Source of the DNA: Octopus vulgaris
Taxonomy: Eukaryota
Direction of reading: 5' to 3'
Assembly (NCBI GenBank): GCA_951406725.2
Contig: OX597822.1
Location: forward strand, 14,260,001 to 14,324,000
Length of the DNA: 64,000 bases
Shown here: positions 31,381-34,315 of the stretch, one piece after another
How the letters are laid out: each line of letters begins with the position of its first letter
Numbering within the stretch: the first letter of the stretch is position 1
Notes under the pieces: model-generated
Told to the model about the DNA's origin: nothing
Database searches by the model: none
Seen by the model: only the letters and a program-made list of their open reading frames with translations
Position numbers and translations under genes: made by a program

Positions 31381-31980
31381 ATACATACATACATACATAC
31401 ATACATACATACATACATACATACATATACTGTAACCATATGTGAATCGTTGGCGATGTTTTATCTCCGTCTTCCTTACTATTAGACTTTCCTGTGTTGG
31501 AGGGCATTGCTCGAAACGTTAAACCTGCTTTCTTTCGTTCCCTGAGTGTCTGCTAATACTTTACATGTAACACGTCCTCGCGTTAGTGTGCTTTTTTGTT
31601 TGTTGTTTTTTGGGAGATGTACGATATATGCAAAGCGGCATTACTTGAGGCTAGCCTGAGGTAGGGTCCCTTCAACATATTCAAGATTGCATATTCGTTG
31701 ATCTTTCACACGGTGTCATTTAGGTGCGATGCAGTTATGGACGAAGTGTTACAGAAACAAATGAAACGAAAACGGAAGTTGTGCTTAATTCATTTTTGTC
31801 TTCTTGTTTAGCTCATGTTTATTTACATCTATCTATCTATCTATCTATCTATCTATCTATCTATCTATCTATCTATCTATCTATCTATCTATCTATCTAT
31901 CTATCTATCTATCTATCTATCTATCTATCTATCTATCTATCTATCTATCTATCTATCTATCTATCTATCTATCTATCTAT

Positions 31981-32605
31981 CGGGATAGGAAGAGCTATTT
32001 TTATCATACTTGTGGCTATGGCGAAAGAATGTATCTGGTGGACGCGCCTGAAAGGATTAGAGACAAACACTTTCCTCTCTGGTCAATCTCTCATCAACTT
32101 CTTCAAGTATCACTTGAAGAGGAAAGTGAGAGTAGAGAGGCAAGTTTTGTCTAGTGAATGTTTTAAAAAAAGATGGGTTAATGTAGCAAGGATGGCACGT
32201 ATGAATGACGAAGCCACCTTGACTATGATTCTATGAACCATAAAAATTAATACAGAGAGTTGCTTATTTGCAAAAAAAAAAAAAAAGAAATATAACATGT
32301 GACTTCATTGACCGAGGTTACCGTGGTCTTTTCCGTAGGCTTTTCTTTCCACGGGTAAACCTCACCTGTCCTCCCCTTTACACTTCATATTGACATTTCT
32401 GTGATAACGATCCCTATTATTCATTTTTTTTTTCTCTCCCCCCTTTTTTTAACCCCTCCCCTTTTTTTTGTCCTTTTTCTTTCCTTTTACGATCCCTTTT
32501 GATCGAAAACCACCACTCTCCTTTTTTTTTTTACCCCCAAAAGAAAAGCTCTACCTTGTAATTTGTTCTATCTGTGTGCAGCCCTGTGTGGCTAATAAAG
32601 AAACA
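31981..32605 (+). mobile_element. 5'-truncated Tx1-clade LINE inside (TATC)n, copy 1
   Basis: Encodes AKECIWWTRLKG...SGQSLINFFKYHL...FKKRW, homologous to the C-terminus of the ORF2 at 43880. Flanked on both sides by TATC repeats. Confidence 0.88.
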
Positions 32606-32616
32606 TATCTATCTAT

Positions 32617-33325
32617 CGGGAAGGAAGAGCTATTTTCATCATCCTTGTGGCTATGGCGAAAGAATGTATCTGGTGGACGCGTCTGAAAGGATTGGAGACA
32701 AACACTTTCCTCTCTGGTCAATCTCTCATCAACTTCTTCAAGTACCACTTGGAAAGGAATGTGAGAGTAGAGAGGCAAGTTTTGTCTAGCGAATGTTTTA
32801 AAAAAAGATGGGTGAATGTAGCAAGGATGGCACGTATGAATGACGAAGCCACCTTGAGCATAATCCTATGAACCCAGAAATTGAAAACAGAGAGTTACCC
32901 ACTTGCAAACAAATGTGGTAACATACAACAATATTGACCAAGGTTACCGTGGTCTTTTTCGTAGGCTTTTCTTCCCACGGATAAACCTTACTTGCTTTCC
33001 CCTTTACACCATATATCATAACACTGTGATACACGATCCCTATTGATCGTTATTTTTCCTCTTCCCCTTTTTTCTTCTTTTTTCATTTCTCTTTTCTTTT
33101 GTTCCTTTTCCTTTTCTTTTTTTTTTTTTTATTTTTTCTTTTTTCTTTTATTTATTTATTTTTTTTGTTCTTTTCTTCCCTTTTACGATCCCTCTTGATC
33201 GAAAACCTACGCCACCCCTTTTTTTTTGTTTCTTTTGTTTTTTGTTTTTTTCATCCCCCAAAAGAAAAGCTCTACCTTGTAATTTGTCCCATCTGTGTGC
33301 AGCCCTGTGTGGCCAATAAAGAAAC
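32617..33325 (+). mobile_element. 5'-truncated Tx1-clade LINE inside (TATC)n, copy 2
   Basis: Same start point as copy 1, with a diverged 3' UTR ending AATAAAGAAAC-(TATC)n. Confidence 0.88.
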
Positions 33326-34315
33326 TTATCTATCTATCTATCTATCTATCTATCTATCTATCTATCTATCTATCTATCTATCTATCTATCTATCTATATC
33401 TATCTATCTATCTATCTATCTATCTATCTATCTATCTATCTATCTATATCTACCTACCTACCTACCTACCTACCTATCTATCTATCTATCTATCTATCTA
33501 TCTATCTATCTATCTATCTATCTACCTATCTACCTATCTATCTATCTATCTATCTATCTATCTATCTATCTATCTATCTATCTATCTATCTATCTCTCTA
33601 TCTATCTATCTATCTATATCTATATCTATCTATCTATCTATCTATCTATCTATCTATCTACCTACCTATCTATCTATCTATCTATCTTTCTATCTATTTA
33701 TCTATCTATCTTTTTTTCTATTTACACACGTGTTTCTGTTCAATTTACACACGTGTTTCTGTATGTATGTATATATATATATATATATATATATATATAT
33801 ATATTCCTTCAGTATCAATCATTCTAAAGTTGAGTGATATGTAATCGGTGGAGAAGAAGAATCTATAGCGCGTCGAACAAAATGTTTTAAATATTTTAAC
33901 ACCGATCCTTTAGCTTCTGAGTTCTCCTCCTGCGGATCAACAAAACTAAGTTTGGTTCAGTCGACTGACTCTGCTATTTCCAGTCCACACCCTTATACAC
34001 CTCTTAGTTTAGCGCTCCTTTTACTGTTTAAAGGGTAAATTATTATGTTGTGTGGAATCAGAACACCACTGTTTGGTTGGCTGCTAATGGACTTTGCCGC
34101 TATATATATCCACATGCGTAGAGAGTGTGGTGGGGAGTGTGTAAGATGTATAAAGCCGAGAGTTGCATATTGTCAAGTGTAATTACAAGTATTTTGTATC
34201 TTGAGTAGAACGATTTGCGACGACGTTATTTATTGTCCCGTTGTATCGTACATCGAACGTGCGATACAGCATAAACTCAAAGACATGCTGCGTTTTTTTT
34301 TTTTGTCTTAGAGCA

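Follow-up and report, generated by a model that had tools for sequence, protein, structure and literature searches.

A high-copy L1/Tx1-type LINE family associated with (TATC)n microsatellites in Octopus vulgaris

In a 64-kb window of the Octopus vulgaris genome, the whole stretch of DNA analysed here, an L1/Tx1-type LINE is represented by three ends truncated on their 5' side, all flanked by TATC repeats on both sides with the same polarity. On balance, we favour the reading that they belong to a high-copy L1/Tx1-type family that inserts into (TATC)n, probably through a nick that its own endonuclease is predicted to make in the GATA strand, where reverse transcription would be primed. What was observed is TATC on both sides, a constant 3' junction with differing 5' breaks, tandem copies spaced by a few repeat units, and mosaic subfamilies.

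All three copies lie on the + strand, with TATC on the sense strand. Copy 1 (31982-32605) follows an array of 38 perfect units, (TATC)38, at 31830-31981, upstream of which there is no family 3' end. It contains the last ~84 codons of ORF2 (stop codon at 32234-32236, with a 1-nt insertion at 31986) and a pyrimidine-rich 3' UTR ending in AATAAAGAAACA. A (TATC)3 spacer (32606-32617), the final C of which is a 1-nt microhomology with the element, separates it from copy 2 (32618-33325), which has the same 5' break as copy 1, an ORF end like that of copy 3 and a divergent, longer 3' UTR. Copy 2 is followed by a degenerate (TATC)/(TACC) array that extends from 33327 to approximately 33710. The shorter, 5'-truncated copy 3 (58844-59304) combines a copy-2-type ORF end with a copy-1-type UTR, and is located between (TATC)5 plus TAT (58821-58843) and an array at 59305-59376 that consists of (TATC)13 (59305-59356) and degenerate units. 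In all three copies, AATAAAGAAAC and one further base lead directly into TATC, without poly(A). The three TATC-flanked copies in one orientation that an earlier note on this DNA had described were thus confirmed, with positions correct to within a base.

Copies 1 and 2 start at the identical element base, which the earlier note had not remarked on. We therefore counted them as a single 5' event, as their 5' junction could be common by descent or reflect a truncation hot spot. The earlier note had counted three independent insertions out of three; given the shared break and the mosaic structure of the copies described below, this number falls to two independent loci. As the 3' side defines the repeat unit, the 5' side provides the fair test of whether the flanks could be TATC by chance. 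With elements masked, and requiring 12 nt of same-strand TATC repeat 5' of a position, 305 of 55,939 positions (0.55%) qualified when the two loci were set aside, and 742 of 56,655 (1.3%) when their own arrays were included. That both of the independent 5' flanks are TATC has a probability of 3e-5 to 1.7e-4 against these backgrounds. The 3' flanks are TATC in 3/3 window copies, and, of nine places in the window that match a tail motif which the family shares with an old LINE fragment and with one SINE family, and which served as an in-window control, TATC follows the 3/3 family copies and 0/6 of the others. Four of five distinct 5' junctions fit a flank that ends in TAT; these are too few and too ambiguous to define a common top-strand cut phase. 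Collectively, and together with the contigs from outside the window described below, these results support an association with TATC on both sides that exceeds chance and is also present outside the window.

The reading of the copies as L1/Tx1-type LINE ends, proposed in the earlier note, is supported. The alignment of their peptide with the C terminus of ORF2 claimed there holds for copies 1 and 2, which encode ~84 C-terminal ORF2 codons and are 54% identical (E ~6e-17) to residues 1073-1141 (counting the frame from 43829) of the ORF2 of a full-length element in the window; it does not extend to copy 3, which retains ~28 codons. That full-length LINE (42073-47509, + strand) is a related element of another family and served as a reference only. 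Its ORF1 (42462-43367) has a zf-CCHC domain and no Transposase_22 domain, and its open ORF2 (43880-47281; 1,133 aa) encodes APE, RT and zf-RVT domains. ORF1 ends at 43367, and an overlapping open frame at 43183-43863 reaches ORF2, so ORF1 of this element may be frameshifted. The top match of the ORF2 among solved structures was human L1 ORF2p (E 4e-67, residues 6-870), compared with E 1e-19 for R2, placing it closer to L1 than to elements with a restriction-like endonuclease. Searches of the ESM Atlas returned generic RT/APE clusters only.

Three database proteins with an RT domain, a zf-RVT domain or both share 68-71% identity with the peptide of the TATC family. An Argonauta protein shares 55%, and a gene model from Octopus bimaculoides 92% within 37 residues. 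Beyond these residues, the model has a region with 28% identity to the ORF1 in the window, an arrangement that would fit a 3' fragment with the front of a second copy behind it. A tree of the C-terminal region (20 pieces and 111 columns, comprising 17 of 123 proteins picked by hand and three window rows, with no named Tx1 reference) placed four database proteins together with copies 1 and 2 and the full-length element in one group (100/99) with no inner resolution, and the full-length element on a long branch. The proposal that the family is a sister of the full-length element is therefore not established: it shares 54% identity with that element against 68-71% with its database relatives, and the 111-column tree gives no order within their common group. 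CCHC-type ORF1 proteins of non-mammalian animals, which have a CCHC zinc knuckle as opposed to Transposase_22, are described as consistent with the Tx1 clade in the available text of PMC5203782. Membership of the Tx1 clade is likely from the domain layout of relatives, on which the domain criteria were scored, the TATC family itself being seen as its last 84 codons only.

We found abundant traces of the family in public sequence sets. Between 65 and 90% of the words of 32618-33060 were present in 20 of 24 listed runs (11 studies). Four runs, comprising three contig sets and one raw-read run, were compared with 31970-32900 at 85% likeness. The contig sets yielded 33,040, 13,125 and 5,483 matching contigs, showing that the family is highly repeated, although such contig numbers give no copy number; the raw-read run (X24) yielded six partial reads and was uninformative. 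Contigs that continue past the 3' end and three units (32617) into (TATC)n numbered 95 (set X1), 74 (X2) and 56 (X15), in three studies, and these 225 contigs agreed with the (TATC)n consensus at 0.66-0.70. A further 21 X2 contigs depart at 32614 as TCTG/TATC, and none of the 18 loose-end groups listed (of 1,372), four of which are those just given, was a non-TATC departure at the element end. At least three contigs of X2, with depths of 75-100, lead from a 3' end across TATC and 2, 7 or 8 further letters to a new copy, these tandem copies starting at 32462, 32485 and 32571 (among the 12 joint matches listed of 52); contigs are not loci, and short contigs span only short repeats.

Searches in other collections were largely negative. 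A DNA pattern for the 3' end had no matches in metagenome, genome and viral contigs. A protein-guided search for similar loci gave a single match in metagenomes, on a GC-rich contig with 38% identity over 26 residues and without element traces, and no match in genome and viral contigs. Translated TATC (LSIY) was sought ahead of homologous short proteins: the four-letter word occurred in 6 of 152 proteins and never as a repeat, and none of the proteins with the word was near enough to be family, save the first 37 residues of one (P0003). The short-protein search itself gave one match at 74%. Neither the contig nor the protein searches recovered a complete copy of the TATC family, its endonuclease sequence or an empty site.

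The copies differ in their relationships from one end to the other. In the 3' UTR (columns 346-430), copy 1 is the nearer to copy 3 (84 of 85 positions against 71 of 85), in agreement with the earlier note. The order is reversed at the ORF end, where copy 2 is the nearer to copy 3 (85 of 88 positions against 79 of 88). The change takes place at a 10-nt switch block (32252-32261 on the + strand; equivalents at 32887-32896 and 58947-58956), 5' of which there are 12 copy-1-only and no copy-2-only sites, and 3' of which there are 6 and 61, respectively (Fisher p = 3.6e-10). The junction of a copy-2-type ORF end with a copy-1-type UTR, as in copy 3, was also found in 22 X1 contigs. The three copies are thus mosaics. 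Given this mosaic structure and the 5' break common to copies 1 and 2, similarity in the UTR does not prove independent insertion, contrary to the argument of the earlier note.

Several origins may be considered for the shared break: duplication with later gene conversion, template switching to the neighbouring copy, a truncation hot spot or re-mobilization of a truncated copy bounded by TATC. Long microhomology was rejected as its source, as the upstream element reads AAA before the shared C, leaving 1 nt only. Plain local duplication with neutral drift was weakened by the eight substitutions between copies 1 and 2, of which four have both alleles common in the family (22-58%, X1), one is private to copy 2 and three are not judgeable (first 166 aligned bases). 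A non-autonomous family with a fixed 5' end was also rejected: copy 3 and three X2 contigs have other starts, and in-frame ORF2 extends beyond the break on its upstream side in 39 X1 and 25 X2 contigs, which indicates that longer copies exist. There may nonetheless be a minority subfamily that starts at this break.

For the reading that we favour, insertion into (TATC)n directed by the element's endonuclease, the following steps are inferred from established target-primed reverse transcription (TPRT). A full-length master element, as yet unseen, would supply ORF2p, the APE domain of which would nick the GATA strand between units. The RT would bind the structured 3' UTR and begin at the element end, probably aided by pairing of read-through UAUC with the primer; such help from the RNA is plausible because, in SART1Bm, RNA resembling the repeat may pair with the primer strand. 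Early stops of the RT would give 5' truncation, and the second strand would join inside the same array, so that any target duplication would be hidden in the repeat. Repeated insertions into one array would produce tandem copies. Two predicted hairpins in the 3' UTR hint weakly at a conserved feature for RT recognition. The first (32313-32363, + strand) is present in all three copies (z scores of -2.4, -2.3 and -1.1) and the second, smaller one lies at ~32485-32509 on the same strand (z scores of -3.7 and -4.1), all relative to mononucleotide shuffles of windows picked by eye. A terminal 3' stem-loop was no better than shuffles (z > 0 in both copies folded).

The same genomic outcome could arise if the site were chosen by RNA rather than by the enzyme, a possibility that we regard as rather unlikely. 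Here, the endonuclease would be loosely specific, and a read-through RNA ending in (UAUC)n would prime only at a nick that exposes a (GATA)n 3' end. The direct passage from element to repeat, with no intervening poly(A), in 3/3 copies and the TATC that follows the 3' end in 225 contigs are both consistent with this, as is the finding that SART1Bm can start reverse transcription where base-pairing of a short RNA resembling the repeat with the target strand is possible (available text of PMC7265360). Against it, target choice in known Tx1 and R1 elements is ascribed mainly to the endonuclease in the portions consulted of PMC4494074 and PMC3812793. A more far-reaching reading, in which truncated copies bounded by TATC are re-mobilized as repeat-to-repeat cassettes through read-through RNAs that have UAUC at both ends and pair at both junctions, seems to us improbable. 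If true, it would mean that the same 5' break was passed to copies of different UTR-swapping subfamilies (copies 1 and 2), that a GATA-targeting LINE both uses and extends the GATA/TATC arrays of octopus, and that the site is fixed by RNA-DNA pairing and not by the endonuclease alone.

Equally doubtful is the notion that the element makes a TATC tail itself and that 5' TATC is secondary, resulting from tandem insertion behind such tails followed by loss of the upstream copy through TATC-TATC recombination. All evidence from outside contigs is for TATC at the 3' end or between tandem copies; each of the three outside 5' junctions lies behind the 3' end of another copy, so a tail could equally explain the TATC found there. 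Within the window, the 5' TATC of copy 2 is the 3' TATC of copy 1, and the shared 5' break indicates that this locus has undergone some rearrangement or conversion. However, TATC confined to the 3' side, which the earlier note had named as speaking against a target, is not what the window contains: TATC lies on the 5' side of both copy 1 and copy 3, and neither is preceded by a 3' end of the family. Furthermore, frequent tandem insertion into tails would itself be a target preference, and four TATC arrays in the window (at 23055, 41531, 60895 and 61924) have no adjoining family copy. Finally, the absence of any insertion preference, such that copies insert at any site and persist, or come to notice, in DNA rich in microsatellites, is hardly credible in spite of the wealth of simple repeats in the window (273 rows) and of the passive accumulation near CA repeats proposed for Drosophila Waldo-A/B (available text of PMC3812793), given the fixed phase and polarity of the 3' junction, the single repeat unit, the 5' flanks (p <= 2e-4) and the presence of TATC after 0/6 related tails.

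The wider repeat content of the window bears on two further suggestions of the earlier note. The idea that related Tx1 families have partitioned their targets is not established by the full-length element within a SINE, which is one case, in a window of which that SINE covers 8%. Spreading of TATC arrays by the family was likewise not demonstrated, given the four copy-free arrays listed above. One of these, the array at 60895, lies at the internal repeat position of a SINE copy (60780-60962), where it takes the place of the TA tract. The 5' array of copy 3 is preceded by the same nine bases, AAGCCTGCC, as the array at 60895 (58812-58843 with these bases) and may also derive from a SINE TA tract. 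TATC arrays of at least three units are all on the + strand (900 nt versus 0; six places by eye), a bias with p = 0.03 before correction for the 11 motifs examined.

The full-length LINE is inserted in the head of the SINE, with an exact 16-bp target duplication (42057-42072 and 47510-47525). The 16-mer occurs seven times in the window with three or fewer mismatches, and the SINE is abundant. With its duplications (42057-47525), the element represents a possible SINE-targeting family, on the strength of one case only. No tRNA or Rfam identity was found for the SINE head. A second SINE-like family (17380-17900 on the - strand, 18250-18520, 23629-23647 and 59850-60025) has a 3' tail in common with the LINE families described here, and these tails are followed by TA repeats in 3 of 5 instances and by the next SINE unit in 2 of 5; it may be mobilized by a relative that prefers (TA)n. 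An old, internally deleted LINE fragment at 1711-1968 comprises a piece of RT and a similar tail, with no TATC after it. The sole clear host gene seen was a 579-codon open frame at 20549-22288 with a bHLH domain (Pfam HLH, E 1.6e-17). Four additional open frames, at 52647-53381 (-), 7268-7804 (-), 56402-56872 (+) and 9450-10438 (+), looked by eye like transposon remnants and may be another LINE C terminus, two mariner-like pieces and a Penelope-like piece.

Targeting of microsatellites is a strategy already known, and what is probably new here is the repeat unit and the host. With this family, the L1/Tx1-type LINEs that target microsatellites gain a TATC/GATA unit and a further phylum. Together with the families in (TTTC)n and (TTCC)n, it would offer a one-base contrast for how an APE endonuclease changes specificity, a process called not well understood in the available text of PMC3812793. 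As GATA repeats are common in animal genomes, the family is also a candidate for studies of repeat-directed insertion. GATA markers in octopus may be interrupted by it.

No LINE specific for TATC or GATA was found in full-text literature searches, the scope of which left Repbase and Kojima and Fujiwara (2004) outside; this is in line with the earlier note, which knew of no (TATC)n-specific Tx1. For O. vulgaris, 80 L1-Tx1 families covering 56 Mb were reported in 2026 (PMC13282606, in part), and the TATC family is probably one of them, as a repeat-library consensus; the word 'target' is absent from the portion of the text available, as are TATC and GATA from that of the supplement. The available text of PMC4494074 has no word beginning with TATC or GATA, although its figure 3 lists more targets, and the available parts of PMC8967140 and PMC8869645 contain nothing on TATC.

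Among known elements, Kojima's rule is that a family is microsatellite-specific when one target type occurs in >20% of flanks, and the targets recorded for the Tx1 clade include (TC)n for Kibi, (TTC)n for Koshi and (TTCC)n or (TTTC)n for crocodilian families, with others in U2 genes or transposons (available text of PMC4494074). More distant parallels are Waldo in (ACAY)n, Mino in (AC)n, Dong in (TAA)n and Togen in (TG)n, which are also microsatellite-targeting non-LTR retrotransposons but belong to other clades and use other units, none of them TATC or GATA in the available text of PMC3812793 and PMC4640811. The crocodilian families (Tx1-1_Crp, Tx1-5_Crp, Tx1-6_Crp, Tx1-1_Gav and Tx1-2/3/5/8_AMi; Kojima 2015, PMC4494074, in part) are closer, being L1/Tx1-like APE-type LINEs in a tetranucleotide microsatellite, with TATC and TTTC differing by one base. 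They differ from the TATC family in repeat unit and in host, the TATC family being found in a mollusc and having close database relatives that are cephalopod or unnamed. With the teleost elements Kibi and Koshi (Kojima and Fujiwara 2004, via the available text of PMC4494074 and PMC3812793), it has in common the microsatellite on both sides and, in its full-length relative, a Tx1-type architecture, whereas its unit has four bases and contains an A. The TATC family works like Kibi and Koshi but is not a member by target, its flanks being (TATC)n and not (TC)n or (TTC)n. Two independent loci and strong 3' support from three studies indicate that TATC is probably a real, previously unreported target unit for this known strategy.
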